Source: an uncultured Pseudomonadales bacterium
GTDB lineage: Bacteria > Patescibacteriota > Microgenomatia > UBA1400 > Chazhemtobacteraceae
Length of the DNA: 64,000 nucleotides
Assembly (NCBI GenBank): GCA_964422035.1
Contig: CAYQZQ010000001.1
Coordinates: 50,528 to 114,527 of the forward strand
Direction of reading: 5' to 3'
Positions 1 through 45,718 of the stretch are shown here, in pieces. The notes below the pieces were generated by a model, which was given only the letters and a program-made list of their open reading frames with translations, was not told where the DNA came from and did not search any database. A program made the translations under genes and the position numbers. Within the stretch, counting starts at the first letter, position 1. Every line of letters begins with the position of its first letter.

Positions 1-1593
1 GGAAAATGAGCGGCCTTTGTTGTATTTGAGATCAGCCAGCCAGTGGCGGATGATGATAACGGACCAGAGCATGGTGAGCAGCAATATAGCGACGATGAGA
101 AATTGTTTTATAGGGGAGTCTTTTTTAATCAACTGAGGAGAGAAAGAAAATTTGGAGATGAAGCGGGGGTATAAAGATAACAGGAGAGCCGGATAGAGAT
201 AGAAGAGAAGGGCAATGGGAATAACGGAGAAGCCAAAGAAGTTGGTGATTAGGATGCTGATGTAGCCTATAAGTAGAGCGGTGGGGAGAGGTTTGTCTTT
301 ATTTTTAAGAAATGTTTTGATGTAGATAACGAAAGTAGAGACAATCAGCGCCAGATAAGTGAGAGTACCAACCAGACCGGTGGTGGCAAGAAAGTTTAAG
401 TATTCATTGTGGGCCTTGTTGTAGAGAAAGTCCCATTCGGAGAGTTGGTTGTGTTCTTGAGGGCGTGTCCAGTAGTAAGAGTAGGCAAAGGTTTCAACTC
501 CGGTTCCCAGAACTGGGTTTTGTTTAAATAATTTCCAGGCACCAGTCCAGACAACACGGCGGATTTCAAAAGAGTCGGAGCCCCCGAAGCGAACTCCTTT
601 TTGTTTGGCTTCTATGAGCTGTTGGGTTTGGGGGGAGAGCTTTTCAAGTTCAAGCGGTTTTGCCTGAGTGGTGAGATTTATTATATTTAAAAGGGGCTCG
701 GCTGTGGGCCAGACAGGACCGCCAACGTTAAGGCGGTGTTGGATTTGGGCGGGACTAGGTGTCCAGGGGGTGCCAACCAGAAAAGTTACAGATAGACAGA
801 AGAGAGTGGTGAGGATAAGTGGTTTTAGTTTCTTTTTGTTTTTAAGGGAGCGGAAAAATAGAAAGAGGAAGCTTAAAGTGAGAATGATAAAAGTGGTGCC
901 GATACCAGAGCGGGATTTGGTGAAAAGAATGGTGGTGTAGTATAGGGAGGCGAGAAAGATAAATAAAAGTCGTTTTTTAGTTGATTGACTGTGAAAGGCG
1001 AGAAAAATGGGGAGAGGGAGAAGAGCTACCAGGTAAGCTGAAAGCCAGTTGGGCTGGCCTAAAGTTGAGAAAACTCTGTTTTGGACGTCTTGAATCCAGA
1101 TATGTTTGTCGATGCCAAAGTGCTCTAAAAAGCCGTAAAAAGCAACTAAGCCGGCAGAGGCCAGGATTGAGTAAAGGATGGTGGTTTCAAGATGCTTTTG
1201 GTTTTTTTGTTGGGAGAAGTGGCTGGTGAAGGTAAAGTATAAAAATAGATAGGAGATAGTGGAGATCAGGCCACCGTGAAAGCGGGAGTAGTAGCCCCAG
1301 AGTGAGGTGTGAGTATCTATCGAGAAGATGGTGGTTATAAGTTGGCCAAGAAAGAAAAGTAGTAGAGGAATGTCAAGAAAGGTGCGTTTGATTTTTAATT
1401 CACCTTGGAAGAGGGATTTGATGAGAAAGGCGCAGGTTATAAGGCCAGTTAAGAGATAGGTAAAGATCATTTTATTGAATTCAAAGACTTCGCTGGTTTT
1501 GGGCCAGAGCAGTAAAGGAACAAAAAAGAGCAAAGCAGCAAATCCGTAGGTGACAAAGCGGTCTAGAAAGTTTTGTAATTTGGTTTTTGGCAT
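1..1593 (-). CDS. O-antigen ligase/polymerase-like (Wzy_C-type) polytopic membrane protein. ATG at 1593 on the minus strand; the C-terminus runs off the window edge.
   Basis: Minus-strand reading frame open from the ATG (revcomp of cat at 1591-1593) to position 1 with no stop, so it is not in the ORF track. Translation is highly hydrophobic and multi-TM (MPKTKLQNFLDRFVTYGFAALLFFVPLL...), with a large periplasmic-type loop typical of the O-antigen ligase family. Plus-strand ORFs 668..940 and 981..1229 are antisense artefacts. Confidence 0.45.
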   Translation of the reverse strand, partial: MPKTKLQNFLDRFVTYGFAALLFFVPLLLWPKTSEVFEFNKMIFTYLLTGLITCAFLIKSLFQGELKIKRTFLDIPLLLFFLGQLITTIFSIDTHTSLWGYYSRFHGGLISTISYLFLYFTFTSHFSQQKNQKHLETTILYSILASAGLVAFYGFLEHFGIDKHIWIQDVQNRVFSTLGQPNWLSAYLVALLPLPIFLAFHSQSTKKRLLFIFLASLYYTTILFTKSRSGIGTTFIILTLSFLFLFFRSLKNKKKLKPLILTTLFCLSVTFLVGTPWTPSPAQIQHRLNVGGPVWPTAEPLLNIINLTTQAKPLELEKLSPQTQQLIEAKQKGVRFGGSDSFEIRRVVWTGAWKLFKQNPVLGTGVETFAYSYYWTRPQEHNQLSEWDFLYNKAHNEYLNFLATTGLVGTLTYLALIVSTFVIYIKTFLKNKDKPLPTALLIGYISILITNFFGFSVIPIALLFYLYPALLLSLYPRFISKFSFSPQLIKKDSPIKQFLIVAILLLTMLWSVIIIRHWLADLKYNKGRSFS

Positions 1594-1732
1594 GAGGATA
1601 TTGTAACGGATGTTTAGATTATTTGGGAAGGAGAGTTGTATATATAAAGCTGGAAAGTTGGAGATATGAGTGGGAAGGATGAATTAAAAAGAGTTTTAGA
1701 ACAACCTGTAATTCGTGTTATACTAAGCTGCG

Positions 1733-2797
1733 ATGATTGATCAATTTTGGCAAATGGTTTCATATGATATCGGCGTGGATTTGGGGACTGCCAATACTGT
1801 GGTACATGTTAAGGATAAAGGAATTGTAGTTAGAGAACCTTCGGTGGTAGCCAGACACAGGAAAACTTTGGAGATTCTGGCGATTGGAACTGAAGCTAAA
1901 CAAATGACAGGGAAGACTCCGGAGAATATTGAAGTGGTAAGACCCTTGCGAGATGGAGTGATTGCGGATTTTGATGCGGCTGAGGCAATGCTTGATTATC
2001 ACATTAGGCAAGTACATGAGTTGATGGGTGGACTTCGAGGAACTTTAAGGAAGCCTAGAGTAGTGGTGGGAATTCCCTCTGGAGTAACAGAGGTTGAGAG
2101 AAGGGCAGTGCAAGAAGCAGCTTTAAACGCGGGGGCAAGAAAGGCATTTTTAATTGAAGAGCCGATGGCGGCAGCCATTGGAGGGGGTTTACCGGTACAG
2201 AAAGCGATGGGTCAGATGGTGATTGATATTGGGGGAGGAACCAGTGAGATTGGAGTAATATCTTTGGGAGGATTGGTTTTAAATAAATCTTTGAGGATTG
2301 CCGGAGATGAGTTGACCGAGGCAGTGATTAGTTTTGCTCGGCTTAAATACAACTTGTTGATGGGTGAGTCGACGGCGGAGGCGGTGAAGATTGCAGTTGG
2401 TAGTGCGTACCCTTTGGATGAAGAGAAAAAGGCTAAGCCTTTGACTATTGTAGTTAGAGGTAGAAGTTTGGAGGATGGACTGCCTAAAAGCCAGAAGATT
2501 AACAGTGTTGAGGTAAGAGAAGCCTTGGCTCCGGTAGTGCGTCAGATTTTGCAGGAGGTGGCTTTGGTAATTGAAGAGACACCTCCGGAGCTTATTAGTG
2601 ATATTTTGGAAAGGGGAATTATGATGGCAGGTGGAGGTTCACTTTTGCGTAATATTGATAAGTTGGTAGCTGAGGAAACAGGAATGCCGGTATGGGTGAC
2701 GGACAATCCAATGGAGGCAGTGGTGAGAGGAACAGCTAAAGTATTGGAAGATGAAAAATTGTTAGGGCAGGTGAAGGTAGTTGGCGGTCTGGTCTGA
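1733..2797 (+). CDS. mreB: Rod shape-determining protein MreB (actin-like ATPase)
   Basis: DIGVDLGTANTVV phosphate-1 motif; full-length similarity pattern to MreB (IGGGTSE, MAGGGSLL). Alternative start at M8 (1754). Confidence 0.95.
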   Translation: MIDQFWQMVSYDIGVDLGTANTVVHVKDKGIVVREPSVVARHRKTLEILAIGTEAKQMTGKTPENIEVVRPLRDGVIADFDAAEAMLDYHIRQVHELMGGLRGTLRKPRVVVGIPSGVTEVERRAVQEAALNAGARKAFLIEEPMAAAIGGGLPVQKAMGQMVIDIGGGTSEIGVISLGGLVLNKSLRIAGDELTEAVISFARLKYNLLMGESTAEAVKIAVGSAYPLDEEKKAKPLTIVVRGRSLEDGLPKSQKINSVEVREALAPVVRQILQEVALVIEETPPELISDILERGIMMAGGGSLLRNIDKLVAEETGMPVWVTDNPMEAVVRGTAKVLEDEKLLGQVKVVGGLV

Positions 2798-2809
2798 TAT
2801 GATGGTTTT

Positions 2810-3403
2810 ATGAGTAAGAAAAAGGGTAAATTGTTTGACAAGATAGCTGCTATATCTAGTCGTGTTTTTGATCCGGTGATAGAGATTCCTGTATTGTTGT
2901 CGGCAGCTGTTTTGATAGCAGTGAATAATGGGATGAGGTGGAGATTTTTGGCGCTGCTTTTGTTAGTTGATGCAGTACTGCCGGCTGGTTATTTGGCTTG
3001 GGGGCTTAAAAGTGGAAAGCTGTCTGATTGGGATATAACAGATAGGAAAGAAAGAATGAGTATTTATCTGTTTGCAGTTCTGACTCATCTGTTTGGAGTT
3101 TTATTGGCTTTATTTATTGGTAAGTATGTGCTGTTTAGGATTTTGTTGGTTTGGTGGAGTATGGCGGTGGTGTTTTTTGTAGTAACTTTGTTCTGGAAGA
3201 TATCAGTTCACGCTGGTGTGAATGCGGCTTTAGTGGTATTTGTTAATCATTTTTATGGTTGGGATAGATATTGGTGGTTGATAGGAGGATTGATTTTGGT
3301 GATGTGGGCAAGAGTGAGGAGTAATAAGCACACGTGGGTGCAGGTATTGGTAGGAGCAGGACTGGCGCTGTTGTGGACAGGATTAGGGTTGCAGGTGATA
3401 TAG
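2810..3403 (+). CDS. Integral membrane protein, possibly a PAP2-like phosphatase
   Basis: 197 aa with 5-6 predicted TM segments. Weak PAP2-like motifs (SVHAG; RVRSNKHTWVQ). Lies between mreB and an inverted mreC. Confidence 0.35.
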   Translation: MSKKKGKLFDKIAAISSRVFDPVIEIPVLLSAAVLIAVNNGMRWRFLALLLLVDAVLPAGYLAWGLKSGKLSDWDITDRKERMSIYLFAVLTHLFGVLLALFIGKYVLFRILLVWWSMAVVFFVVTLFWKISVHAGVNAALVVFVNHFYGWDRYWWLIGGLILVMWARVRSNKHTWVQVLVGAGLALLWTGLGLQVI

Positions 3404-4168
3404 GACTGCGGCGACGTTGAGTTGAGTTTTGGGGTTTATGGCAGGAGTTAGTGAAGCTGATTGATAGACATCTGTCTGGGCTGGTTGGACTTGGTTTATA
3501 GTGCCGATAAGCAAGCCGGAGGGGTAGTCGTCTGTGCCTTGGGTGAAAACGGGTTGGTCAGCCGTTAAGGCGGGGTCTGGTGAGACCTGAGTGAAGCGCA
3601 GTGTCTGGGATTGAAAGATGACTTGACCGGTTTGCCCTTTGGATGTTTTGGCAGGAATCTGAATTTGAGGATCAGTGAGGAGGCGGACTGAGCTGGTGCG
3701 GGGGTTGACTTGTTCAATTATGCCTAGAAGTGAGGAGCCGGAGATGACAGCGTAACCCGGTTTGATGTGGGAAATGGCACCGTGATCAATGTATGCATAG
3801 CGGGAAAGACCAGTGACTCGAGCAGGTTGAATGGGAGCTTGGGCGACGGCGGGAACGTCAAGTAATTGTTTTAGGTGCTGGTTTTGATCTTTGAGTTCTT
3901 GGAGGGTGAGAAGCTGGCTTTGGAGCTGAGTGTTTTGACTGTTTAGGTTGTCAATGGTTTGTTGCTTGTTAGGGAGTTGTTTAAGAAAGGAGAGTCTGTT
4001 TTGAATATAGAGGCGGGAGTTGGTGGCGGGTATACGCAAGGGAGAGGTGAGAGTAGTAAGGGAGAGCTTGAGCCAGTTTAAGCGATTCTGGTATGAGAAA
4101 CCAACCAGGGTGGCAGAAATCAAAACAGCCAATAAGTAGTGAGTGAAAGTGGCGTCTTTGGTTTGCAT
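3383..4168 (-). CDS. mreC: Rod shape-determining protein MreC
   Basis: N-terminal TM segment, a Q/L-rich coiled coil, then MreC beta-domain motifs (VISGSSLLGIIEQV...SSVRLLTDP; VFTQGTDDYPSGLLIGTINQV). On the opposite strand to mreB. Confidence 0.85.
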   Translation of the reverse strand: MQTKDATFTHYLLAVLISATLVGFSYQNRLNWLKLSLTTLTSPLRIPATNSRLYIQNRLSFLKQLPNKQQTIDNLNSQNTQLQSQLLTLQELKDQNQHLKQLLDVPAVAQAPIQPARVTGLSRYAYIDHGAISHIKPGYAVISGSSLLGIIEQVNPRTSSVRLLTDPQIQIPAKTSKGQTGQVIFQSQTLRFTQVSPDPALTADQPVFTQGTDDYPSGLLIGTINQVQPAQTDVYQSASLTPAINPKTQLNVAAVLYHLQP

Positions 4169-4215
4169 ATAGGGGTATTGTAACTTATGAGTTAAGAACG
4201 TGGTAAATTAATGGT

Positions 4216-4644
4216 ATGAAAATTAAGTTTTGGGCGGTAGTCTTTACAACAGGTCTGTTGGTGATGATACTGGAGTCCAGTTTCTGGCCTTTGCCGATGG
4301 TTATTTGGTGGTGGTGGTGGATATCAAGGCGGATAAGTTGGAAAGAGTTGATCTGGATTAGTTTGGTGGTGGGTGTTTTGATGGATAGTTTGAAGGTTAG
4401 AGCTTTGGGGTGGTCGAGTCTAGTGCTTTTGGCTTATGTAGCTGTGTTGTGGTGGATAAAAGAAAAGGTTGGTAGAGAAGAGATAGAGTGGGTAGTTGTT
4501 TTGGTGATGGCTATAGTATGGAGTGGTTTTTGGGGATGGGGATGGGGGATTGGTAAGATGGTTTTAATAGCAGTGATAACAGGAGTTGAGATTTTACTGA
4601 TAGATAGATTGAGTAGTTATTCAGCAATTAGATTAAGAAGATGA
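4216..4644 (+). CDS. Small polytopic membrane protein, MreD-like by position
   Basis: 142 aa, 4-5 TM segments, located between mreC and PBP2 as mreD would be. No sequence motif recognised. Contains a WWWWW run encoded by 5 consecutive TGG codons. Confidence 0.4.
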   Translation: MKIKFWAVVFTTGLLVMILESSFWPLPMVIWWWWWISRRISWKELIWISLVVGVLMDSLKVRALGWSSLVLLAYVAVLWWIKEKVGREEIEWVVVLVMAIVWSGFWGWGWGIGKMVLIAVITGVEILLIDRLSSYSAIRLRR

Positions 4645-6236
4645 ATTCAGTAGGCAGACGAATGCTGGGTGAGCAGATGGGAGAGAAGGGAAAATTAAGA
4701 AACAGTGACAGCAAGGGTGGGATGTTGTGGCTTAAGTTAGTGGTTGTTTTATTGGCGGGAATTTTTATGAGCAGAGCCTTTTTTGTTCAAGTAGTGACGG
4801 GTCAGATTCAGTCAGGTCAGGCGCAAGGAAATAGTTTGGAGCGAAAATGGATAGAAGCCAAAAGAGGGGTGATTAAAGACAGGGAGGGTGAGGTGATGGT
4901 TAGAAATAGCAAAAATGATAAAGGTGAGGTGGAAAGGGAGTATTTACTTGAAGAGGCAGGAGCTCATCTTTTGGGGTATGTAGGAGAAGTTAATGAAGAT
5001 GAGATGGAGAAGTTTAATCTGAGAGCAGGTGAGTTGATAGGTAAGATGGGGGTTGAAAAAGCCTTTGATGAAGTTTTAAGAGGAGTACCGGGTCAAAGCC
5101 TGGTGGAAGTTGATGCTGAAGGGGAAATAATACGTGAGGTAACAAGAAAGAACCCGATTGATGGACGCGAGCTTAAACTTAACGTGTCGAAAGGACTGCA
5201 AGAGCAGATTACTAAAGTACTAAGGGAGAGGGAGGATGAGACAAAGGGAGCGGTGGTGGTAACAACGGTTGATGGAGAGCTTTTGGGGATGGTTTCCTGG
5301 CCAAGTTTTGATGCTAACTTATTTGTAAAGAAAGATGACAAGGTAAAAGAGCTTTTAAACTCAGAGGATAAGCCTTTATTTAACAGGGCAGCTTTGGGTA
5401 TTTATCCACCCGGTTCTGTTTATAAGCTGGTAACAGCAACAGCTGGACTGGAGGAGGGGGTAATTGATGAGAACACCTTAATTGAGGATACGGGAGAGAT
5501 TGTAATTGGTCAGTATAGGTATGGGAACTGGTACTATGACCAGTACGGAAAGACAGAGGGAGAGTTGGATGTGATAGGAGCACTGAAGCGCAGCAACGAT
5601 ATTTTCTTTTATAAAACTGGAGAGAAGTTGGGAGTAGAGAAGATGAGGGAGTGGTCACATAAAATGGGTTTGGGCGAGAAGATTGACTGGGATTTGGGAG
5701 GACAGATAACAGGAGGAGTACCAGATCCGATTGAGTGGGAAAAGAGAACCGGTCAGCGCTGGTTTTTGGGTAATACGTATCATATGTCAATTGGTCAGGG
5801 TGATTTGAGAACCAGCCCGTTGCAGATAAACAGAATGACGGCAACAGCTGTTTCAGGAGAGATTTGTGATGTAAGGGTAGAGGGGAAGAGTGGTGACTGC
5901 AGCAGAGTTGATATTGGAGACAAGACTAGAGAGCTGGTGGTGGAGGGAATGAAACAGACTTGCAGTCAGGGAGGTACGGCATTTCCGTTTTTTGATTTTA
6001 AGCCACAGGCAGCTTGTAAGACGGGAACAGCGCAACAGGGAGGAGAGGAAGCATTACCGCATGCTTGGATCAGTGTGGTGGTGCCAAAGAAGGGGGAGGA
6101 AGAGTTTGATTTGAAAGCGTACGAGAAGGGAGCGGTGATCACTGTTTTGCTGGAAGCAGCTGGTGAAGGAAGTGAACAAGCGGGGTCGGTAGCGAGAGAG
6201 GTTGCTGATTATTTAATTGAAGATGTGGAGTGGTAG
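4641..6236 (+). CDS. mrdA: Penicillin-binding protein 2 (peptidoglycan D,D-transpeptidase, elongasome)
   Basis: N-terminal TM anchor. Transpeptidase motifs SxxK (PGSVYKLV), SxN (KRSNDIFF) and KTG (CKTGTAQ). Positioned in the mre cluster. Confidence 0.9.
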   Translation: MNSVGRRMLGEQMGEKGKLRNSDSKGGMLWLKLVVVLLAGIFMSRAFFVQVVTGQIQSGQAQGNSLERKWIEAKRGVIKDREGEVMVRNSKNDKGEVEREYLLEEAGAHLLGYVGEVNEDEMEKFNLRAGELIGKMGVEKAFDEVLRGVPGQSLVEVDAEGEIIREVTRKNPIDGRELKLNVSKGLQEQITKVLREREDETKGAVVVTTVDGELLGMVSWPSFDANLFVKKDDKVKELLNSEDKPLFNRAALGIYPPGSVYKLVTATAGLEEGVIDENTLIEDTGEIVIGQYRYGNWYYDQYGKTEGELDVIGALKRSNDIFFYKTGEKLGVEKMREWSHKMGLGEKIDWDLGGQITGGVPDPIEWEKRTGQRWFLGNTYHMSIGQGDLRTSPLQINRMTATAVSGEICDVRVEGKSGDCSRVDIGDKTRELVVEGMKQTCSQGGTAFPFFDFKPQAACKTGTAQQGGEEALPHAWISVVVPKKGEEEFDLKAYEKGAVITVLLEAAGEGSEQAGSVAREVADYLIEDVEW

Positions 6237-7063
6237 AAAATAAAGTTAAGTATTTGTTGGGGTTGTCGGAAGTTGAAGGATTAAGGGGTAAGAAATTGAA
6301 GAAAATTTTGGATGAGGTAGGTGATGCCAAACAGATCTGGATGGCAAGTGATGAAATGTTGAATAAGTGGGGGGTTTCAGGTCAAGTTTTGGATAGCTTG
6401 CGGGCCTATAAGCGTAGTGTGAACTTGGATAAAAAAATTGTTCAATACGAAAATGAAAAAATTGAGTTGTTGCCAATCTGGAGTGATAAGTATCCGGATA
6501 ATTTAAAGGAGATTGAAGGAGCGCCGGGACTACTTTTTGTGAAAGGAAATTTGGATGTTTTAAATAAAAAAATGATGGCGGTGGTTGGCAGTCGAAATGC
6601 CAGTGATGGGGCGAAAGAAAAAACTGCAGCGGTGTGTGGAGTTCTGGTTAATAGAGGGTTTGTAGTGGTATCGGGACTGGCACAGGGAATTGATGGATAT
6701 GCGCATAAGGCTTGTCTGGGGCAGAAGGGTGAGACGGTGGCAGTTCTGGCGCATGGGTTGGAGAGAATATATCCTAAAAATCATCAGGGACTGGCGGAGC
6801 GAATACTGGATAAGGGAGGGGCATTGGTTAGTGAGCAACCGATGGATGTGGAGATAAAAAGGGAGTACTTTTTGGAGAGAAACAGGATAATGGTGGGGAT
6901 GAGCGAGGGCTTGGTAGTGGTAGAGGCGCAGGTAAGGTCAGGTTCGATGGCTTCGGCTAACAGGGCGGCCAGTATGGGAAGAGAAGTTTGGGCTGTTGAG
7001 GGAAGTATGGGGACTGATTTGTTAATAAAGGAGGGGGCAAACAAGTTGGCAGTGGACGTTTGA
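6230..7063 (+). CDS. dprA: DNA processing protein DprA (Smf)
   Basis: Rossmann-like DprA core (MAVVGSRNASDGAKE...GLAQGIDGYAHKACL...AVLAHGLERIYPKNH). GTG start overlapping the mrdA stop. Followed by topA, a conserved dprA-topA pair. Confidence 0.9.
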   Translation: MVENKVKYLLGLSEVEGLRGKKLKKILDEVGDAKQIWMASDEMLNKWGVSGQVLDSLRAYKRSVNLDKKIVQYENEKIELLPIWSDKYPDNLKEIEGAPGLLFVKGNLDVLNKKMMAVVGSRNASDGAKEKTAAVCGVLVNRGFVVVSGLAQGIDGYAHKACLGQKGETVAVLAHGLERIYPKNHQGLAERILDKGGALVSEQPMDVEIKREYFLERNRIMVGMSEGLVVVEAQVRSGSMASANRAASMGREVWAVEGSMGTDLLIKEGANKLAVDV

Positions 7064-7098
7064 GGTTGTTGGTGATTATGTGTTTAAATAGGGAAAGT

Positions 7099-9168
7099 AT
7101 GAAACTTATTATTGTTGAGTCACCAACAAAGACTAAGTCCTTGTCAAAGTATTTGGGAAAAAAATTTAAGGTAATGGCTTCGATGGGTCATATTCGTGAT
7201 TTGCCCAAGTCAAAGATGGGGATTGAGATTAAAAAGAAGAATGGTGATTATCACTTTGAGCCCGACTACATTACAGTTCGAGGCAAAGGTGAGCAGATAA
7301 AGAGAATACAAAAGGAAGCTAAAAAAGCTGGTGAAGTGATTTTGGCTACTGACCCGGATAGAGAAGGAGAAGCGATTGCTTATCACGTTGAGCATTATCT
7401 GAAAGATGATATGGAGAAAGAGAAGATAAAAAGAATTGTTTTTCACTCGATTACCAAAGAGTCGGTGTTGGAGGCGATAGAGGAACCAAGAGGAATAGAT
7501 AAAGACTTATTTCATGCCCAGCAGGCAAGAAGGCTTCTGGACAGGTTAGTGGGTTATACGCTGTCTCCGGTTTTATGGAAGAAGGTAAGGAGAGGTTTGT
7601 CAGCAGGTCGAGTTCAGAGTGTGGCTTTGCGTTTGACGGTGGAGAAAGAAAAAGAGATTGAGGCTTTTGAGCCGCAGGAGTACTGGAATATAACTGCTTT
7701 GACTAAAACAACCAAAAAGGATGACTTGGAGATGGCTTTATGGAAAGTCAAAGGCGAGAAGCTGGAAGTTGACAGTGAGAAAAAGGCCAAAAAGATTGAA
7801 AGTGATCTGAAAAAAAGTAGTATCAGTGTAGTTGAGGTAAAAGAGAAGAAAAGGAAAAGGAAAGCTAAGGCTCCTTACAGAACTTCAACTCTGCAACAGG
7901 CGGCTGCCAATGTCTTGGGTTGGTCTTCAAAGAAGACGATGGCAGTAGCGCAGAGATTGTATGAACAGGGGGACATTACTTATCACAGAACTGACTCGGC
8001 CAAGCTGGCAGATTCGGCTATTGGACAGGTAAGAGATTTTGTGAAAGATGAATGGGGGGAGAAGTTTTTACCTGGAAAGCCTAAAGAGTACAAGACAAAG
8101 AAAGGCGCAGTTGCTCAAGAGGCACATGAGGCTATCAGGCCGACAAGAATGGAAGTAGGTACTCATAGTTTTAAGGGTCAGGGAAAGATGGCTGACAGTC
8201 AAGAGAGATTGTATGATCTTATCTGGCGAAGAACGGTTAGCTCTCAGATGAAACCGGCTATTTATGAAGGTGTGCGGATTTTAGCGGAAGATGAGAAGGG
8301 AAACTATACTTTAAGAGCCAGTGGTGAGAGATTGATTTTTTCCGGATGGAGAGAGTTGTATAAGAGATTTGAGAAAAAAGACGAGGAGATGCCTGAAGTT
8401 GAGGAGGGCGAGAAGCTTGATTTGCAGAAAGTGGAGTTGGAACAGAAGTTTACCAACCCGCCGGCCAGATATAATGATGCGTCTTTGGTTAAGCAGTTGG
8501 AAAAGAAGGGGATTGGAAGACCAAGTACTTATGCATCAATTATCAGTACACTTTTGAGCAGGCGTTATGTAGTTAGGGAAGAGAGAAGATTTAAGCCAAC
8601 TTCGATCGGAATTGGTGTTTGTGAGTTTTTAGTTAAAAATTTTCCCGAGGAGATGGAGTATGACTTTACCAAAGAGATGGAGGATGGGTTAGATGATATT
8701 GCCAGAGGAGAGAAAGACTGGCAGGAGTATTTAAGTAATTTTTATAAAGATTTTCATAAGACGGTAGAGAAAGTAGAAGAAGAGGCTGAGAGAGTGGAGT
8801 TGCCGGTTGAGAAAACTGGAGAGAAGTGCCCTAAGTGTGATGAGGGAGAAGTGATTATCAGAGAGGGAAGATATGGCAAGTTTTACAGTTGTGACAGGTT
8901 CCCTGATTGTGATTACACCAAAGACTATAAGGAGTACCTGGATAATTTTAAGTGCCCTGAGTGTGATGGTAGGGTTGTCATTAAAAAAACTAGAGGAGGC
9001 AAGCAGTTTTATGGCTGTGAGAATTATCCTAAATGTGATTGGGCAAGTTGGAAAGATCCTCGTGAAGAGATGGATAAAGAGGGGAAAGAAGACAAAAAGG
9101 AAAAAGAAGATAAGAAAGAAAGCAAACAAGAAAAAAATAAAAAAAAGAGTAATGATAAGAAGAAATGA
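7099..9168 (+). CDS. topA: DNA topoisomerase I
   Basis: Toprim N-terminus (MKLIIVESPTKTKSL...GHIRDLP). C-terminal zinc-ribbon repeats (CPKCDEGEV..., CPECDGRV..., CENYPKCDW). K/E-rich tail. ORF-track start 7060; the ATG at 7099 matches the canonical N-terminus. Confidence 0.95.
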   Translation: MKLIIVESPTKTKSLSKYLGKKFKVMASMGHIRDLPKSKMGIEIKKKNGDYHFEPDYITVRGKGEQIKRIQKEAKKAGEVILATDPDREGEAIAYHVEHYLKDDMEKEKIKRIVFHSITKESVLEAIEEPRGIDKDLFHAQQARRLLDRLVGYTLSPVLWKKVRRGLSAGRVQSVALRLTVEKEKEIEAFEPQEYWNITALTKTTKKDDLEMALWKVKGEKLEVDSEKKAKKIESDLKKSSISVVEVKEKKRKRKAKAPYRTSTLQQAAANVLGWSSKKTMAVAQRLYEQGDITYHRTDSAKLADSAIGQVRDFVKDEWGEKFLPGKPKEYKTKKGAVAQEAHEAIRPTRMEVGTHSFKGQGKMADSQERLYDLIWRRTVSSQMKPAIYEGVRILAEDEKGNYTLRASGERLIFSGWRELYKRFEKKDEEMPEVEEGEKLDLQKVELEQKFTNPPARYNDASLVKQLEKKGIGRPSTYASIISTLLSRRYVVREERRFKPTSIGIGVCEFLVKNFPEEMEYDFTKEMEDGLDDIARGEKDWQEYLSNFYKDFHKTVEKVEEEAERVELPVEKTGEKCPKCDEGEVIIREGRYGKFYSCDRFPDCDYTKDYKEYLDNFKCPECDGRVVIKKTRGGKQFYGCENYPKCDWASWKDPREEMDKEGKEDKKEKEDKKESKQEKNKKKSNDKKK

Positions 9169-17778: not shown

Positions 17779-17848
17779 GAATTAGATTTGAAAGAGTTTT
17801 TTGAAATTGGATGAAGTTTGAGGGAAATCTTTGCTATAATAGAACGGT

Positions 17849-18184
17849 ATGAAAAATGAAGAAAAATGTATTTTTTGCCAGATAGTTGAAGGTAAAGAAG
17901 AGGCTAATATGAGATATGAGGATGATAATTTTTTGGTGTTTGATGACATTAGCCCAAAAGCGCCTGAGCATGTATTGATTGTTCCTCGGGAACATATTGA
18001 GAGTATGAATCAGGCGGATGAGAAGATTCTAAATGAGATGATTAAGCTGTCAAAAAAGATATGCAATGATTGGCAATTAGATCACTTTAGGGTGCAGATA
18101 AACAACGGTCAAAAAGCCGGACAGATAGTTGATCATCTGCATATGCATCTTTTAGGATGGAATAAAGGGAAGGAGGTGGCTTAG
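17849..18184 (+). CDS. HIT-family (histidine triad) nucleotide hydrolase
   Basis: CIFCQIV...; histidine triad HLHMHLLG. Confidence 0.9.
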   Translation: MKNEEKCIFCQIVEGKEEANMRYEDDNFLVFDDISPKAPEHVLIVPREHIESMNQADEKILNEMIKLSKKICNDWQLDHFRVQINNGQKAGQIVDHLHMHLLGWNKGKEVA

Positions 18185-18185
18185 T

Positions 18186-18419
18186 TTGAGTATTGTGACG
18201 GTAAAGCGAAAGCCTGGTGATAGCAATCAGAGCTTAATTCGCAGATTCAAAAACAAGACATATAAAGATCCTGATCTAGAACGCTATGAAGAGCGTCAAG
18301 AAGGGTATAAACCTGATTCTGTTAAGAAAAAAGAACAACGCAATAAAGAAGCGCTACGATCAAAAATTGAGAGTCGTAGACACAGAAGACGCAAGAAAGG
18401 CGGCAAGATTAAAAATTAA
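18186..18419 (+). CDS. rpsU: 30S ribosomal protein S21
   Basis: 77 aa basic protein; SLIRRFKNKT core; R/K-rich C-terminus; TTG start. Followed by yqeY, a conserved pair. Confidence 0.65.
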   Translation: MSIVTVKRKPGDSNQSLIRRFKNKTYKDPDLERYEERQEGYKPDSVKKKEQRNKEALRSKIESRRHRRRKKGGKIKN

Positions 18420-18428
18420 TCTATTTAT

Positions 18429-20954: not shown

Positions 20955-21239
20955 ATGGCAAGCATGTTAGATAAAATAGGAAAAGTTGGTTCTCAGGGTA
21001 AAGCAGCGGCCAAGATGATGATGCTGCAAAGAAAGATTGGTAAAAAAAAGATAGAGTATCAGGATGAGAATATTAAAGTAGTGGTGACGGGTGACGGTAA
21101 GGTAAAGAGTATTGAGGTTGAAGGAGAGAAAAAAGAGGAGATTGCTAAGGTAGTTAATAAAGCTATCGAGAAAGCTCAAAAATGGGCTGCCAAACAAATG
21201 CAGGGGAAGATGGGCGATTTAAGTAAGATTCTTGGATAA
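20955..21239 (+). CDS. ybaB: Nucleoid-associated protein YbaB/EbfC
   Basis: 94 aa; the MMMLQRKIG...VVVTGDGKVKSIEV pattern matches YbaB; conserved dnaX-ybaB-recR order. Confidence 0.8.
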   Translation: MASMLDKIGKVGSQGKAAAKMMMLQRKIGKKKIEYQDENIKVVVTGDGKVKSIEVEGEKKEEIAKVVNKAIEKAQKWAAKQMQGKMGDLSKILG

Positions 21240-22909: not shown

Positions 22910-22960
22910 AATTTGACAGGTGTTTGGGGGATATTTATAATTGCCTACGCACGTTAACAA

Positions 22961-23046
22961 GGGGCTGTCGTCTAATGGTAAGACATCCGGTTTTATAAAT
23001 TTATCCTCGCACCGGAAAAATATGGGTTCGAGTCCCATCAGTCCCT
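22961..23046 (+). tRNA. tRNA-like gene with a 21-nt anticodon loop (insertion, mini-intron or pseudogene); isotype undetermined
   Basis: Cloverleaf read directly from the sequence. Acceptor GGGGCTG/CAGTCCC (one G-U pair). D-arm GTCT-AATGGTA-AGAC. Anticodon stem TCCGG/CCGGA enclosing TTTTATAAATTTATCCTCGCA (21 nt instead of 7). Variable region AAAAT. T-arm ATGGG-TTCGAGT-CCCAT. Discriminator T. Confidence 0.5.
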
Positions 23047-23048
23047 AT

Positions 23049-23189
23049 AGGAAGGAAGTTGGTTAGGGCCGACCATGGTCTAAGGTTAAATACTCTTATT
23101 GAATGAGAGTGAACTAGTACCGTGAGGGAATTTCACATTCAATCAGCGTATTTGTTTTCCCACTAAATGCTTCCACCAACTTCCTTCCT
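23049..23189. repeat. 15-bp perfect inverted repeat (aGGAAGGAAGTTGGT ... ACCAACTTCCTTCCt) enclosing about 110 nt that carries a 23S-rRNA-like 15-mer (AGTACCGTGAGGGAA)
   Basis: Left arm 23049-23063, right arm 23175-23189, exact reverse complements. The internal sequence gaactAGTACCGTGAGGGAAtttc is identical over 15 nt to the conserved 23S rRNA domain I segment GAGUACCGUGAGGGAAAGG. The element sits exactly between two tRNA-like genes. Confidence 0.5.
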
Positions 23190-23199
23190 TTTGTACTTT

Positions 23200-23272: not shown

Positions 23273-23657
23273 TTAGAAAGTTTGCTTAATGCTGAGTCGC
23301 ATATCAGCTGTGTACTTGATAGCAGGCTTTCTTATACCGTGGGGTAAAAAAATAAACGAGTAGCTAATTACTCGGTCTCCTCCTTTGAGATATTTTTTAC
23401 AACCCCACGGTTTTTTTGTGGTACAAATTGGTTTATATGAGGCTGTAAGCTTGATGTAAATTAAGAGAGTGAATGTAATAACAAGTGTACTTTGAAAGGC
23501 ACGCCTAGGGTTAGTTGTTTTCAGCCAAGGCTCGGCCTTTTTGAACTCCTTGCTTAGCCGCAGGGGAGTAAACTGAGTTTTTTTAATTGTCTTTCCCTCA
23601 GTTTGTACTTTGTTCTTGTGGCTTTTTTTATGCTTTAAAATTGGTAAGATAGAGGTT

Positions 23658-26131: not shown

Positions 26132-26368
26132 TTGGATAGACAAGAGAGGCTAGACTGGTATAATTGGGTTATGATGAAGTTTGTCAATTTTTTATTGAGT
26201 AGCCTTTCAGGTAAGAGGAATTTTTCCGTTGAGGAAGGTGTGAAGTATAGTCTGAAAAAATACAAGAAGGCCTATAAATTGCTGGAGAAGTATGACCAAG
26301 AAACTGCAAAAGACTGCCAAGAATTGGCTGACCCTGAAGACTTGCGCTCTTCTATTCAAGAGCTTTAA
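26132..26368 (+). CDS. Small hypothetical protein upstream of and overlapping the Doc/Fic gene; possible cognate antitoxin
   Basis: 78-aa ORF ending inside the 5' part of the Fic/Doc ORF in another frame; no motif recognised. Confidence 0.25.
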   Translation: MDRQERLDWYNWVMMKFVNFLLSSLSGKRNFSVEEGVKYSLKKYKKAYKLLEKYDQETAKDCQELADPEDLRSSIQEL

Positions 26369-32503: not shown

Positions 32504-32525
32504 AGTATTTTAGGGGGCGTATTAT
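32497..32525 (+). promoter_or_regulatory. Sigma70-type promoter for the AbiE-1 operon (TTGACA-17-TATTAT)
   Basis: TTGACA at 32497-32502, 17-bp spacer, TATTAT at 32520-32525. The -10 box overlaps the ORF-track ATG (32524), implying the true AbiEi start is the downstream ATG at 32578. Confidence 0.5.
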
Positions 32526-33111
32526 GTACATATACGTACATAAATCGTCTTCAAATAAATTTTTAGGTAATTATCTTATGGATTACAAATCAGAGTTGTT
32601 AAAACAGGGCAGAAAGATATTTAAGACAGATGATCTGGCTTTGTTGTGGCAGATAAAGAAGAGAAACACCTTGCTGAAGACGATTTATCGCTATTTGGAG
32701 AGGGAAGTGTTGTTTAGTGTGCGAAAAGGAGTATATAGTGTGATGCCGCCAGAGGAGCTAGATCCGTTTGTGTTGGGTACGGCCTACATGAAAGGTTTTT
32801 GTTATGTCAGTTTGCAGACGGTACTAGCTAAAGAAGGGCTGATTAATCAGGTGGTGAGGCGAGTTACTTTAATAGGAGAGAGATCGTTGGAGTTTGAGGC
32901 GGGGGGAAGAGAGTATAGCTGCAGAAAAATGAAAAAGGAGTATTTGTATAACCAGATGGGGATAGAGTTTAAACATGAGTATGCTCAAGCGAGTAAGGCA
33001 AGAGCCATTGCTGATATATTGTATTATAATTCTGATTTTTACTTTGATAAGAAGTGGGGAGAAGTAGAAAACAGGGTTGAAGAAATTAGAAAGCAGGTGT
33101 TTTTAAAATGA
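32524..33111 (+). CDS. abiEi: AbiEi-family antitoxin/transcriptional regulator (type IV TA / abortive infection); true start probably ATG 32578
   Basis: AbiEi_4-like N-terminal domain pattern (GRKIFKTDDLALLW...RKGVYSV...FCYVSLQTVLAKEGLI). Immediately upstream of, and overlapping by 4 nt, an AbiEii nucleotidyltransferase gene. Confidence 0.75.
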   Translation: MYIYVHKSSSNKFLGNYLMDYKSELLKQGRKIFKTDDLALLWQIKKRNTLLKTIYRYLEREVLFSVRKGVYSVMPPEELDPFVLGTAYMKGFCYVSLQTVLAKEGLINQVVRRVTLIGERSLEFEAGGREYSCRKMKKEYLYNQMGIEFKHEYAQASKARAIADILYYNSDFYFDKKWGEVENRVEEIRKQVFLK

Positions 33112-33842
33112 TGAAAGTACCAAGACGAAACGAGATGCCTCATAAACTGGCGATGTATAGCTTGCTGCAGAAGCTTTTGGCTGATGTGGAGATTGTTTCA
33201 AGTATTTATTTTAAGGGTGGAAGTTGTGCGGCCATGCTGGGATATCTGGACCGGTTTAGTGTGGACTTGGATTTTGATTTACTGGATAAAGAGAAAAAAA
33301 GTAATTTGCGTCAAAAGATCCATCAGGTAATAGACAGTTTGGGGTATGAAGTTAAAGATGAGGCAAAAGAGCAGTTGCAGTTTTTCTTAAAGTACAGAGA
33401 TGCGGCAAATGAGCGCAACACCTTGAAGCTGGAGATTGGAGATTTGGTGTCTGAGGCTAATGAGTATAAAAAAGTGTATTTGGTGGAGATAGATAAGTAT
33501 TGTAAGGCACAGACGATCGAGACGATGTTTGCAAATAAACTGGTGGCGTTAAAGGCTCGTTATGAGGAGGGAAAGGGGATAGCAGGGAGAGATGTTTATG
33601 ATGTTGGTCATTTTTTTAAGCAAGGATATGGAATAAACAATAAAGTGGTGGAAGACTTAAGAGGGGTGAGTATGACTAAATATATAGAAGAGCTGGTTGA
33701 GTTTGTAGAAAATGAGGTGGGAGAGAAAGTACTATATCAGGATTTAAATCCTTTGTTGAGTAAAGAGAAGCTAAATCAGGCAGTACCAAGATTGAAGGAA
33801 GAAGTGTTGATTGCTTTGAGAAGCCTAATTGTGGGTAGTTGA
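33108..33842 (+). CDS. abiEii: AbiEii/AbiGii-family nucleotidyltransferase toxin (DUF1814-like)
   Basis: NTase motif KGGSCAAMLGYLDRFSVDLDFD (GS...hxRxSxDLD). Size 244 aa; operon partner of AbiEi. Confidence 0.8.
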   Translation: MMKVPRRNEMPHKLAMYSLLQKLLADVEIVSSIYFKGGSCAAMLGYLDRFSVDLDFDLLDKEKKSNLRQKIHQVIDSLGYEVKDEAKEQLQFFLKYRDAANERNTLKLEIGDLVSEANEYKKVYLVEIDKYCKAQTIETMFANKLVALKARYEEGKGIAGRDVYDVGHFFKQGYGINNKVVEDLRGVSMTKYIEELVEFVENEVGEKVLYQDLNPLLSKEKLNQAVPRLKEEVLIALRSLIVGS

Positions 33843-40950: not shown

Positions 40951-41442
40951 GTGAAAAAGAATTATATGACTTTGGAAGGTAAAAAGGTTTTGGAAAGGAG
41001 GCTAAAGGAGGCTAAGGATGAGTTTAAAAAACAGAACTTGGCGATAGGTAGTGCGGCTGGTGAAGAGTATGATTGGCATGATAACGCGGCGTTTGATATA
41101 GCAGTGGCAAATAGAGATGTAGCCAGTAGCAGAATTAGAGAATTAAAGCAGAAATTGCAGAATGTGGAGATTATTAAACCGCGTGAAGAGACGAATGAGG
41201 TAGGAATAGGGAATGAGGTGGTGGTTAGGTACAACAAGGAGAAGGAAGATAAAGTGTTTACCATTGTGGGACCGGTAGATTCTGAGTTACATGAAGGCTG
41301 GATTAGCCATAAAACCCCATTGGGGAAGAGTTTATTAGGAGCTGAGGTGGGAGAATTCGTAGAAATGAAGCTTGGGGATGGGATGGTTGCTAGAATTAAA
41401 GTTAAGGAAATTAAAAAGATGAATGTTTTTGTTGAAATATAG
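40951..41442 (+). CDS. greA: GreA/GreB-family transcript cleavage factor homologue
   Basis: N-terminal coiled coil plus a C-terminal FKBP-like domain (ISHKTPLGKSLLGAEVGEFVEMKLGDG). The acidic-tip region is not canonical (DWHDNAAFD instead of D..E). Confidence 0.7.
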   Translation: MKKNYMTLEGKKVLERRLKEAKDEFKKQNLAIGSAAGEEYDWHDNAAFDIAVANRDVASSRIRELKQKLQNVEIIKPREETNEVGIGNEVVVRYNKEKEDKVFTIVGPVDSELHEGWISHKTPLGKSLLGAEVGEFVEMKLGDGMVARIKVKEIKKMNVFVEI

Positions 41443-41659
41443 TGCTGAGAAAGATAAGTGGAGGATATATTATGTAAACGATTTCTCTCATCTTAAATAT
41501 ATGAGGAGGGAGAGTTAATATTTTTTTAGTTATCTTTTGTTGTGGATAGATATGAGCTTTGCCTTTGATGAAAGTAGTTAAGAGCTCTGGTTGATGTAAA
41601 TAATAAGTAAAACGCAAGAATTGATTTTTAGAGAGTGCAAATTTTTATAAGAGATAAGG

Positions 41660-41687
41660 CTTGACAGGGGGTGATATAAAGATATAC
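41660..41687 (+). promoter_or_regulatory. Strong sigma70-type promoter (TTGACA-16-TATACT)
   Basis: TTGACA 41660-41665, TATACT 41682-41687. About 75 nt upstream of an intrinsic terminator. Confidence 0.55.
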
Positions 41688-41693
41688 TACAAA

Positions 41694-41777
41694 CAGATGT
41701 CTGAATTTGAGGTGCAGGACACCATAGTTTTAGCAAAAAGCTAATAAAACTTATTAACCGCCGTTTGGCGGTTTTTT
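41694..41777 (+). ncRNA. Candidate about 80-nt small RNA or cis-acting leader (promoter to intrinsic terminator)
   Basis: Predicted transcript ACAAACAGAUGUCUGAAUUUGAGGUGCAGGACACCAUAGUUUUAGCAAAAAGCUAAUAAAACUUAUUAACCGCCGUUUGGCGGUUUUUUU. Contains an internal imperfect hairpin (GUUUUAGC/GCUAA-AAAC) and a terminal terminator hairpin. Confidence 0.4.
41757..41777 (+). terminator. Rho-independent terminator (CCGCC-GTTT-GGCGG followed by T7)
   Basis: Perfect 5-bp GC stem, 4-nt loop, 7 consecutive T. Confidence 0.7.
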
Positions 41778-41843
41778 TGCAGTTGAATTGACAGGCATAA
41801 GAATAACTTATAATATATATTTATAATAATTTAAAATAAAAAA

Positions 41844-42776
41844 ATGAGTGAAAAATCAATAAATTCAGAGCAACCAAAGAATATTGAAAAAGGGGAGGAC
41901 AAAAAAGGAGGTATATCGAGAAGAAGGTTCTTGAAAATAGCAGGAGCATTGGTGGCGGTGGGGGCAATAACTAAGTTAGAGAAAGCTACAGGAGTGACTA
42001 AGGGATTGGGTAAGGAAAAGGGGGAGAAAGTGTTATCAGGTGAATCTGTGGAGTTTAAGGTTGGGGATAGGATTAAAGAAATCTATCAAATTAACGGAGT
42101 GGGGATAAATCCAGAATTTGATAATGAGACGGAAGGGTCAGCAGAGGATATAATGGCTCTGGTTTTTGTTAAGGCTTGTCATAAGGCGTGGCAGCGACAT
42201 CATAAGGATTTAGAGACTGGCTTTGATGAGTATGTGAGTATGCTGGATGAGGCAGAAAAAACAGGAGAATATGAGCAAATAATGTTTACTGTGGGAGGAG
42301 CGGATTTAACGGCTGGCGGAGATTATGATCAGATGATGATAAATCCTCTGGAAGGGTTTGATGTGGTGGTAGCTGATTATATATATGATGACATGAGAAT
42401 GAAGATGAGAATCGAGAGGCAAGAGGCGAGTTATAGGAGTAGTGATAAAGTGATGGATGAAGATGTGTCTCCTATCGAGGTTAAAAAAGACAATGTTATG
42501 CTTGGGTACGCAAAGAGTGAAGAAGGAAAGTTGCAGTTGATGTTTAATTTACCCAGTCAGGCATGGGCTAAAGATCCTACTTCTTCAAAACATCTGACAG
42601 AAAGGTTGATGATATCCTTGATAATGTTGCAAAGTTCCCCGGGCGAACAGATGGGTCATACGATTAGTGGTGAGAAGCAGCAAGAAGAGCTTAATTCAAA
42701 GTTGGAAAGAGAGTCAGATGGGTATAAGAAGCTGATGTTTGTTAGTGATGAGATTGGTATACTGGCAGCTGAGTGA
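41844..42776 (+). CDS. Secreted hypothetical protein with a twin-arginine (Tat) signal peptide
   Basis: N-terminus ...GGISRRRFLKIAGALVAVGAITK matches the Tat consensus S/T-R-R-x-F-L-K followed by a hydrophobic h-region. Confidence 0.55.
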   Translation: MSEKSINSEQPKNIEKGEDKKGGISRRRFLKIAGALVAVGAITKLEKATGVTKGLGKEKGEKVLSGESVEFKVGDRIKEIYQINGVGINPEFDNETEGSAEDIMALVFVKACHKAWQRHHKDLETGFDEYVSMLDEAEKTGEYEQIMFTVGGADLTAGGDYDQMMINPLEGFDVVVADYIYDDMRMKMRIERQEASYRSSDKVMDEDVSPIEVKKDNVMLGYAKSEEGKLQLMFNLPSQAWAKDPTSSKHLTERLMISLIMLQSSPGEQMGHTISGEKQQEELNSKLERESDGYKKLMFVSDEIGILAAE

Positions 42777-45111: not shown

Positions 45112-45140
45112 TTGACAGAAAATGTACATTTATGTATATT
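45112..45140 (+). promoter_or_regulatory. Sigma70-type promoter (TTGACA-17-TATATT) giving a leaderless or near-leaderless abiEi-2 mRNA
   Basis: TTGACA 45112-45117, TATATT 45135-45140. Start codon at 45149 lies only about 8 nt after the -10 box. Confidence 0.5.
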
Positions 45141-45148
45141 AACTATTA

Positions 45149-45718
45149 ATGAGATTAAAAGAGTTAGAAGACAAGCTGGAGTATCCGATTTTTAGTTCAA
45201 ATCAGGTTGAAAGGATGTTTGTTGAGGAAGAGAATAATAGTATAAATATTCAGCTCTCCCGTTGGGAAAAGAGAGGGGAGCTGGTGCGGTTAAAAAGAGG
45301 GATATATAAGCTGGCGGATAGGGAAGTGGAGGAGATGGTAGTGGCGAGTGTTATGTATAGGCCTTCTTATGTAAGCTTGGAGACGGCTTTGCATTATCAG
45401 GGGGTGATACCGGAGGTGGTGAATATGATTACCAGTGTGACAACGATTACCTCAAAAGAGTTTGAAAACCAGATGGGGGTTTTTGTATACAGCAAACTTA
45501 AAAAAGAGCTTTATTTTGGTTTTAAGAAAGTGAAGGATAGTAAAAGTGGCATGTACTACCAGATAGCCGAGCCGGAGAAGGCTTTATTGGACTGGATTTA
45601 CGTGAAGGGAGTAAAAGACTTGCAGGCAAGCAGAGTAGATAGAAGTCTTTTGGAGGAGGAAAAGTTGTCCAGGTGGGCTGAAAAGTACCCGGACTGGGTG
45701 GGGGAGGTAATTGATTAA
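45149..45718 (+). CDS. abiEi: AbiEi-family antitoxin/regulator (second copy)
   Basis: RLKRGIYKL...VMYRPSYVSLETALHYQGVIPE is the AbiEi N-terminal domain signature; upstream of AbiEii-2. Confidence 0.75.
   Translation: MRLKELEDKLEYPIFSSNQVERMFVEEENNSINIQLSRWEKRGELVRLKRGIYKLADREVEEMVVASVMYRPSYVSLETALHYQGVIPEVVNMITSVTTITSKEFENQMGVFVYSKLKKELYFGFKKVKDSKSGMYYQIAEPEKALLDWIYVKGVKDLQASRVDRSLLEEEKLSRWAEKYPDWVGEVID

Follow-up and report, generated by a model that had tools for sequence, protein, structure and literature searches.

A short promoter-to-terminator unit with a predicted 5'-terminal AUG upstream of a conserved gene pair in an uncultivated bacterial lineage

Introduction

In mycobacteria, an AUG or GUG at the very 5' end of an RNA is both necessary and sufficient for leaderless translation, and initiation of this kind gives rise to hundreds of unannotated small open reading frames (ORFs) (Shell et al. 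2015, PMC4633059). Most of these short ORFs in Mycobacterium tuberculosis give no sign of purifying selection, their translation being pervasive and unselected (Smith et al. 2022, PMC9094748), and mycobacterial leaderless short ORFs have also been found to serve as attenuators (Canestrari et al. 2020, bioRxiv 10.1101/834739). The unit described here lies in a 64,000-nucleotide stretch of DNA, referred to below as the window, which was analyzed as a whole. It resembles the mycobacterial short ORFs in being an unannotated reading frame at the predicted 5' end of an RNA, upstream of an annotated gene and in a genome rich in leaderless genes. Unlike them, it has a strong terminator and then a further promoter behind it, and it is not the first cistron of the operon; it contains no Cys-rich or other sensory codon run, and it belongs to an unrelated, uncultivated lineage known from sequence alone.

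Several other well-described systems share parts of this layout. Trans-acting small RNAs (sRNAs) with Rho-independent terminators are likewise intergenic, with a stand-alone promoter and an RNA of 50 to 300 nt that ends in a GC-rich hairpin and a U-tract, whereas our unit would begin with an AUG, in a genome of leaderless genes, and shows no conserved or significant structure, no seed or target, and no Rfam family. Leader-peptide attenuators of the trpL, hisL and pheL type also combine a short ORF with an intrinsic terminator within about 10 nt, upstream of an operon, but the present unit has no 2:3 antiterminator and no run of regulatory codons, and a further promoter precedes the gene. The dual-function sRNAs SgrS/SgrT, RNAIII/hld and SR1/SR1P are similar in that a short terminated transcript carries a very small ORF; these RNAs are longer and led by a Shine-Dalgarno (SD) sequence, and their base-pairing regions have been demonstrated.

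Results and discussion

A near-consensus promoter is paired with an intrinsic terminator

The original prediction for this locus described a strong promoter, a transcript of about 80 nt and a perfect intrinsic terminator on the + strand, and each of these elements was recovered. The promoter (P1) consists of a -35 hexamer TTGACA (41661-41666) and a -10 hexamer TATACT (41683-41688) separated by a 16-nt spacer, and it matches the consensus at 11 of 12 positions. The terminator begins 68 nt past the -10 box. Its stem proved to be longer than the CCGCC-GTTT-GGCGG-T7 core first described, with AACCGCC (41756-41762) and GGCGGTT (41767-41773) enclosing a GTTT loop and a T7 run at 41772-41778. Having a 7-bp stem with 5 GC pairs, a 4-nt loop and the T7 run, the element (41756-41778) is built as an intrinsic (Rho-independent) terminator; its hairpin has a predicted energy of -10.9 kcal/mol and a pair probability of 0.999 in the fold of the full transcript. 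Judging from the geometry of promoter and terminator, transcription would start at 41695-41697 and end within the U-tract, giving a discrete predicted transcript of about 80 to 85 nt (41695-41778).

Since C makes up only 11.8% of the + strand of the window, GC-rich hairpins are rare on it. We compared the observed numbers with 60 first-order-Markov simulations, each of 64 kb and of the same composition. On the + strand of the 64-kb window we observed 6 promoters with at least 11 of 12 matches (0.6 expected) and a single perfect terminator (0.0 expected), and the promoter-terminator pair, present once in the window, appeared in none of the simulated sequences. When the terminator rules were relaxed, the majority of matches fell within ORFs; 41756-41778 is the sole intergenic terminator with an all-GC stem and a T7 run on the + strand in 64 kb. 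We conclude that the promoter-terminator pair is real and far from chance.

The upstream neighbor, greA, ends at a stop codon at 41442. The fold of the region that follows (41443-41545) has an energy of -25.6 kcal/mol (z = -3.1) and includes an AU-rich hairpin with a T7 run (41483-41527, + strand), at which the greA transcript probably ends. Because greA has its own hairpin and T7 run, read-through from greA is not needed to account for the downstream unit.

Separately, we noted that a 22-nt string covering most of the P1 terminator, CCGCCGTTTGGCGGTTTTTTTG (41758-41779), is identical to "terminator" annotations in several Escherichia/Shigella siphophage records. This identity represents convergence, not homology.

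Roughly half of the genes in the window look leaderless

The window is a gene-dense chromosome segment that encodes leuS, greA, mur ligases, murA, ssb, ychF, a release factor and two AbiEi/AbiEii pairs. A -10-like hexamer was found 5 to 10 nt before the start codon of 29 of the 62 ORFs, with peaks at 6, 8 and 9 nt, compared to counts of 8 and 4 at control offsets. SD-like 4-mers were depleted, being present at 8 of the 62 starts (13%) against 25% of random windows. Judged by these sequence signals, roughly half of the genes in the window look leaderless. Strong TTGACA promoters lead to start codons at 6 to 9 nt at AbiEi (45149), at the Fic gene (26171), and at 19391, 9773 and 58894, while others lead to stable RNAs, namely, a tRNA at 22961 and a structured minus-strand RNA of about 160 nt. 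Genes internal to operons often overlap by 4 nt.

Nearly all genes lie on the + strand, which is G rich, the base counts of the window being 20023 A, 19125 G, 17305 T and 7547 C. The GC skew, (G-C)/(G+C), ranges from 0.29 to 0.50 on the + strand across every 4-kb bin, which is far above the usual bacterial values. The only relatives that carry P4, the first gene downstream of the unit, at 39 to 51% identity (L023, L052-L061 and L063) share this skew, with values of 0.41 to 0.53.

The predicted RNA begins at or next to the AUG of a 15-codon ORF

An ATG at 41697, 8 nt after the -10 box of P1, opens a + strand ORF of 15 codons that encodes MSEFEVQDTIVLAKS and reads ATG...AGC TAA TAA (41697-41747), with the tandem stops at 41742-41747 and the terminator stem starting 11 nt past the first of them. 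The 8-nt spacing is among the three favored by annotated genes of this window, and the combination of a perfect -35 box, a good -10 box and an ATG at 6 to 9 nt was found at two sites only, 41697 and AbiEi. From the base composition, we estimate that chance alone would place an ATG at 6 to 9 nt, with 15 or more open codons behind it, downstream of about 3 to 4% of promoters. The codon usage of the ORF is gene-like, its log-odds of 0.29 per codon matching the median of real gene starts (0.27 ± 0.16); against 272 decoy short ORFs it ranks in the top 8.8% (p of about 0.09, with little power, given 14 codons). The sequence-based case for translation of this ORF is thus suggestive. The AUG and the reading frame behind it, like the leaderless look of the window's genes, had been overlooked in the original prediction, which offered either an independent sRNA or an attenuating, riboswitch-like leader; the discrete short unit that it described stands and the independent sRNA is still viable, but the leader is not borne out.

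Our best reading, which we hold tentatively and with less than even confidence, is that the locus encodes an independent, lineage-specific leaderless mini-mRNA for a 15-residue peptide. P1, a near-consensus promoter of the sigma-70 type, would fire an RNA starting at the AUG at 41697 or 1 to 2 nt before it. Direct loading of ribosomes on 5'-terminal AUGs is to be expected here, because -10 boxes lie near the start codons and SD sequences are depleted; ribosomes would accordingly be able to load straight onto the 5'-terminal AUG of the short RNA and translate it, as a leaderless mRNA, into MSEFEVQDTIVLAKS. Translation would even be the default expectation for this RNA, since about half of the genome's genes appear leaderless and the RNA is predicted to have a 5' AUG. 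The strong, presumably constitutive terminator would end the RNA 11 nt past the first stop, provide it with a hairpin-protected 3' end, and shield the next promoter, which begins 9 nt later. The mini-gene would thereby be self-contained and not the leader of the downstream operon. The promoter, the terminator, the ORF and the leaderless spacing of gene starts are observed in the sequence; where transcription begins, that the ORF is translated and what the peptide might do are inferred, and a dual role as an RNA is possible.

Certain observations weigh against a mini-mRNA. Neither a peptide nor an RNA homologue was found in the 69 fetched loci, although this absence is uninformative, because protein identity to the nearest relatives is only about 50%. 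With 15 residues, the product would be near the lower size limit of functional peptides, and a start at 41695 would mean a 2-nt leader, tolerance of which is suggested by the 8- to 9-nt spacing class only. In its favor, the RNA body is no more structured than shuffled sequences, as expected of a message. Moreover, the transcript of another short unit on the minus strand (61500-61305) lacks an AUG near its 5' end and is structured (z = -3.2), which indicates that true noncoding RNAs look different in this genome.

The RNA body is not structured above chance and matches no Rfam family

The enclosed RNA had been described as containing an imperfect hairpin. This hairpin (41727-41750, + strand) is indeed present in the minimum free energy (MFE) fold of the full transcript, its arms GUUUUAGC (41727-41734) and GCUAAUAAAAC (41740-41750) being joined by AAAAA, and it overlaps the last codons of the ORF as well as both stops. 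Its structure, however, does not exceed that of shuffled sequences: with z = -1.3 and 22 of 200 shuffles folding equally well, it is not significant in a test that folded 41728-41758 and so excluded the first G of the lower stem. Without the terminator, the body of the RNA gave z = -0.76 against shuffles. Rfam scans of the whole window at gathering and E-value thresholds, together with two focused permissive scans, returned only tRNAs and terminator-driven noise, so that neither at the gathering score nor at E <= 10 did any family match the unit, in agreement with the earlier remark that no riboswitch consensus could be recognized. The sub-threshold matches included the terminator-bearing sRNAs STnc240, ncS54 and isrK, at 16 to 20 bits against cut-offs of 43 to 55, and Phe_leader, at 12.9 bits against a cut-off of 55.

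These results bear on whether the unit encodes a noncoding, trans-acting sRNA of about 85 nt that would work by base pairing or protein binding, its 5' AUG and reading frame being incidental. An own strong promoter combined with a Rho-independent terminator is the classical layout of an sRNA gene, the window contains a second such unit that is clearly noncoding, and the sub-threshold sRNA matches in Rfam are all to terminator-bearing sRNAs. On the other hand, neither the body nor the internal hairpin is structured above chance, the best duplex of the RNA with the 63 gene starts in the window was equaled by 72% of shuffled RNAs, and no homologue was found in the fetched loci. An RNA starting with AUG would, moreover, be expected to engage ribosomes in a genome that initiates on 5'-terminal AUGs. 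We consider an sRNA conceivable but doubtful.

The resemblance of GUUUUAGC...GCUAAUAAAAC to a Cas9 repeat:anti-repeat duplex raised the idea of a tracrRNA or another guide-like RNA, which was rejected since the window lacks an array, a cas gene and a further copy of the hairpin. No array of repeats, spaced or in tandem, was seen in the 64 kb. Domain scans of 34 ORFs, 28 of them against Pfam and 6 against NCBIfam, detected no Cas domain, and LeuRS is the longest of the ORFs. The unit also has no tracrRNA match in Rfam, and no exact match turned up in a scan of viral contigs. That the unit could be a guide-like RNA for an effector encoded elsewhere is hardly credible.

The downstream gene P4 carries promoter-like signals of its own

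Two genes follow the unit on the + strand. P4 (41844-42776) encodes a 310-aa protein of no known family with a borderline Tat-type signal, and P5 (42800-45073) encodes a 757-aa Cys/Gly-rich, membrane-anchored protein. A promoter-like site, P2 (41788-41816, + strand), whose TTGACA begins 9 nt after the terminator T-run, lies in front of them, followed by TATAAT after 15 nt or TAATAT after 17 nt. A further -10-like hexamer, TAAAAT (41832-41837, + strand), ends 6 nt before the P4 ATG at 41844, which is the modal leaderless spacing of the genome.

P4 had been called Tat secreted. Support for this is borderline, since the protein scores just below the cut-off for the Pfam TAT_signal (21.8 versus 22.7 bits) and just above that for TIGR01409 (16.9 versus 16.7), and the twin arginine RR is RK in two of the four aligned homologues. 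No Pfam or NCBIfam family other than the Tat signal was detected in P4. Its AlphaFold model (pLDDT of 63.6, pTM of 0.66) suggests at most a weak resemblance to a zincin-like fold, and a Foldseek search of the model against the PDB found nothing.

The P4-P5 pair is conserved at 26 to 29% identity in a distant lineage (L064, positions 444-7963), where it adjoins type IV pilin-like genes, a probable prepilin peptidase (judged from the sequence by eye) and HicAB. In the lineage of about 50% identity, the order is reversed, with a P5-like gene before P4 and a P5 C-terminal fragment after it. This neighborhood loosely supports the notion of a surface module and reveals no regulatory logic for the upstream unit.

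Evidence against a riboswitch or an attenuator

A riboswitch lacks support on three counts. The unit contains no aptamer matched by Rfam and has no counterpart upstream of P4 homologues in four lineages; it shows no mutually exclusive terminator and antiterminator folds, the terminator forming with probability 0.999; and no leader appears to run continuously into the P4 ORF, given that the sequence signals TTGACA at 41788 and TAAAAT intervene. Consistently, a search of the RNA for an antiterminator found none, and the CCGCC arm is unpaired in the nascent-RNA fold. A leader-peptide attenuator is not supported either, as MSEFEVQDTIVLAKS has no run of a repeated residue and no tandem regulatory codons. 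The proposal of an attenuation leader is therefore not borne out, given the lack of an aptamer and of a competing fold, the unstructured body, the downstream promoter signals, and the absence of the element in relatives.

A cis-acting attenuator of the P4-P5 operon might be envisaged more broadly, P1 being the operon promoter and a ligand, a protein or a ribosome on the leader ORF modulating read-through. The unit does share a strand with P4 and lies 66 nt ahead of it, and an ORF followed by a terminator superficially resembles a leader-peptide arrangement. In the closest P4 lineage (L052 and relatives), the gene is likewise preceded by a promoter-like site together with a weak hairpin and U-run, and there is the precedent of attenuation by mycobacterial leaderless short ORFs (bioRxiv 10.1101/834739). 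Against this stand, in addition to the firm terminator without an alternative fold, the peptide without regulatory codons and the lack of any riboswitch or leader match in Rfam, a perfect TTGACA downstream of the terminator and ahead of P4, with a -10 box that ends 6 nt short of the P4 ATG. By our geometric estimate, a ribosome at the stop at 41742 would extend only as far as the base of the stem, at about 41754-41756. Nor does P4 have an SD sequence, so that its AUG, if internal to a read-through RNA, would be in a poor position for initiation in this genome. The regions upstream of P4 homologues also differ in all four lineages. We therefore regard an attenuator as improbable.

Two further variants, a ribosome-sensing switch in which the leaderless ORF reports translational capacity and boosts P4-P5, and a lineage-specific dual-function sRNA that encodes a peptide, appear quite improbable as well. 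In the switch variant, a ribosome that reaches the tandem stops close behind RNA polymerase would weaken the adjacent terminator and thereby allow transcription from P1 into P4-P5.

No counterpart of the element was found in the few known relatives

The best LeuRS match in GTDB species genomes and JGI metagenomes was 41 to 47% identical. Among 5.8 billion proteins, relatives of GreA and P4 reached 45 to 51%, apart from the source itself, and a HMMER scan of 1.84 billion representatives yielded only 5 P4 relatives. Hardly any relatives of this lineage have been sequenced. A GreA relative (L051) was tried as a comparator and discarded as uninformative, having neither synteny nor GC skew.

A comparison of homologous upstream regions, which had been suggested as a source of covariation, revealed no shared element: the regions upstream of P4 homologues in four lineages could not be aligned, and none had the element. 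In the lineage of about 50% identity (L023 and L052-L061), the P4 homologue is preceded by a P5-like gene, a promoter-like site and a weak hairpin; in L063, by a promoter and an SD-containing leader of about 55 nt; and in L064-L069, by a 128-aa gene whose own terminator abuts a TTGACA promoter. L064 thus has before the homologous gene the same terminator-then-TTGACA junction as that at 41778-41788. Searches of 568 kb of fetched sequence (69 loci) with the RNA (nhmmer) and with the peptide (tblastn) found nothing. Absence at such distances says little about an independent gene, but it removes comparative support for a leader of the P4 family.

It is also conceivable that the unit has no selected product and represents a proto-gene, or an insulator guarding the P4 promoter, with RNA and peptide as by-products. 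This would fit the lineage-restricted occurrence of the element, absent in every relative examined, the documented unselected and pervasive translation of short leaderless ORFs (PMC9094748), and the terminator abutting the next promoter in L064, which there ends the normal 128-aa gene. Yet a -35 box with 6 of 6 matches, a -10 box with 5 of 6, and a perfect 7-bp stem with a T7 run would be costly to maintain by chance in a strand with 11.8% C. As the hairpin and T7 run of greA lie upstream, an insulator would mainly insulate against P1 itself. Translated searches also argue against a decayed gene, since tblastx of the 401-nt spacer against the fetched loci and the window detected no remnant; of the 128-aa upstream gene of L064, no trace was seen in the window. 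Overall, we consider the absence of a selected product unlikely.

Implications of the proposed leaderless mini-mRNA

If the peptide or the RNA of the tentatively preferred mini-mRNA is functional, leaderless micro-ORF biology would extend beyond the Actinobacteria. The unit is of a type that gene annotation pipelines miss, in an uncultivated and poorly sampled lineage that uses near-consensus sigma-70 promoters and few intrinsic terminators and whose genes look mostly leaderless. It further implies that calls of "sRNA or leader?" made from promoter-terminator pairs must first check for a 5' AUG. Taken alone, the unit is a small matter, one further orphan short transcription unit whose value is that of a clean test case, and the GC skew and leaderless gene grammar of the window are arguably more notable than the mini-gene.

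Other elements in the window

The second promoter-to-terminator unit lies on the minus strand (61500-61276). A TTGACA-17-TATACT promoter (61500-61472) is followed by about 160 nt of structured RNA (z = -3.2) and CGGACC-ACTT-GGTCCG-T7, and a second terminator, CCTGGC-TTAATC-GCCAGG-T6, is located just upstream of tRNA-His (61271-61195). The unit has no 5' AUG and no Rfam family, and no homologue was found in the fetched loci; it is a candidate novel noncoding RNA.

At 22913-23046, a perfect promoter, matching at 12 of 12 positions, drives an 86-nt tRNA-like gene (Rfam tRNA, 57.9 bits) that ARAGORN misses. The anticodon stem of this gene, CCGGU/ACCGG, closes a loop of 19 nt, suggestive of a short insertion or an intron. 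Between this gene and tRNA-Val lies an element of about 145 nt (23049-23190) with a 14-bp closing stem, AGGAAGGAAGTTGG...CCAACTTCCTTCCT; it contains GAACTAGTACCGTGAGGGAA, which resembles a 23S rRNA string. Rfam gave no match to the element, and the fetched loci gave no homologue. Downstream of tRNA-Val, at 23338-23424, lies a large-loop terminator with a T7 run.

Some gene starts and short genes can also be revised. The Fic-domain gene probably starts at the ATG at 26171, 6 nt after a TATAAT, and not at 26292. An unlisted leaderless ORF of 91 codons begins at 20964, and an apparent 650-bp gap (17779-18428) contains, judged by eye from the sequence, a HIT-family-like ORF and an S21-like ORF (17849-18419). 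In the region 45112-45149, the AbiEi proteins of relatives align from position 45122 of the window, 27 nt upstream of the ATG at 45149 and across an in-frame TAA, implying that what is coding N terminus in the relatives corresponds here to the TTGACA-17-TATATT promoter of a shorter, leaderless AbiEi. The second AbiEi/AbiEii pair is located at 32524-33842.
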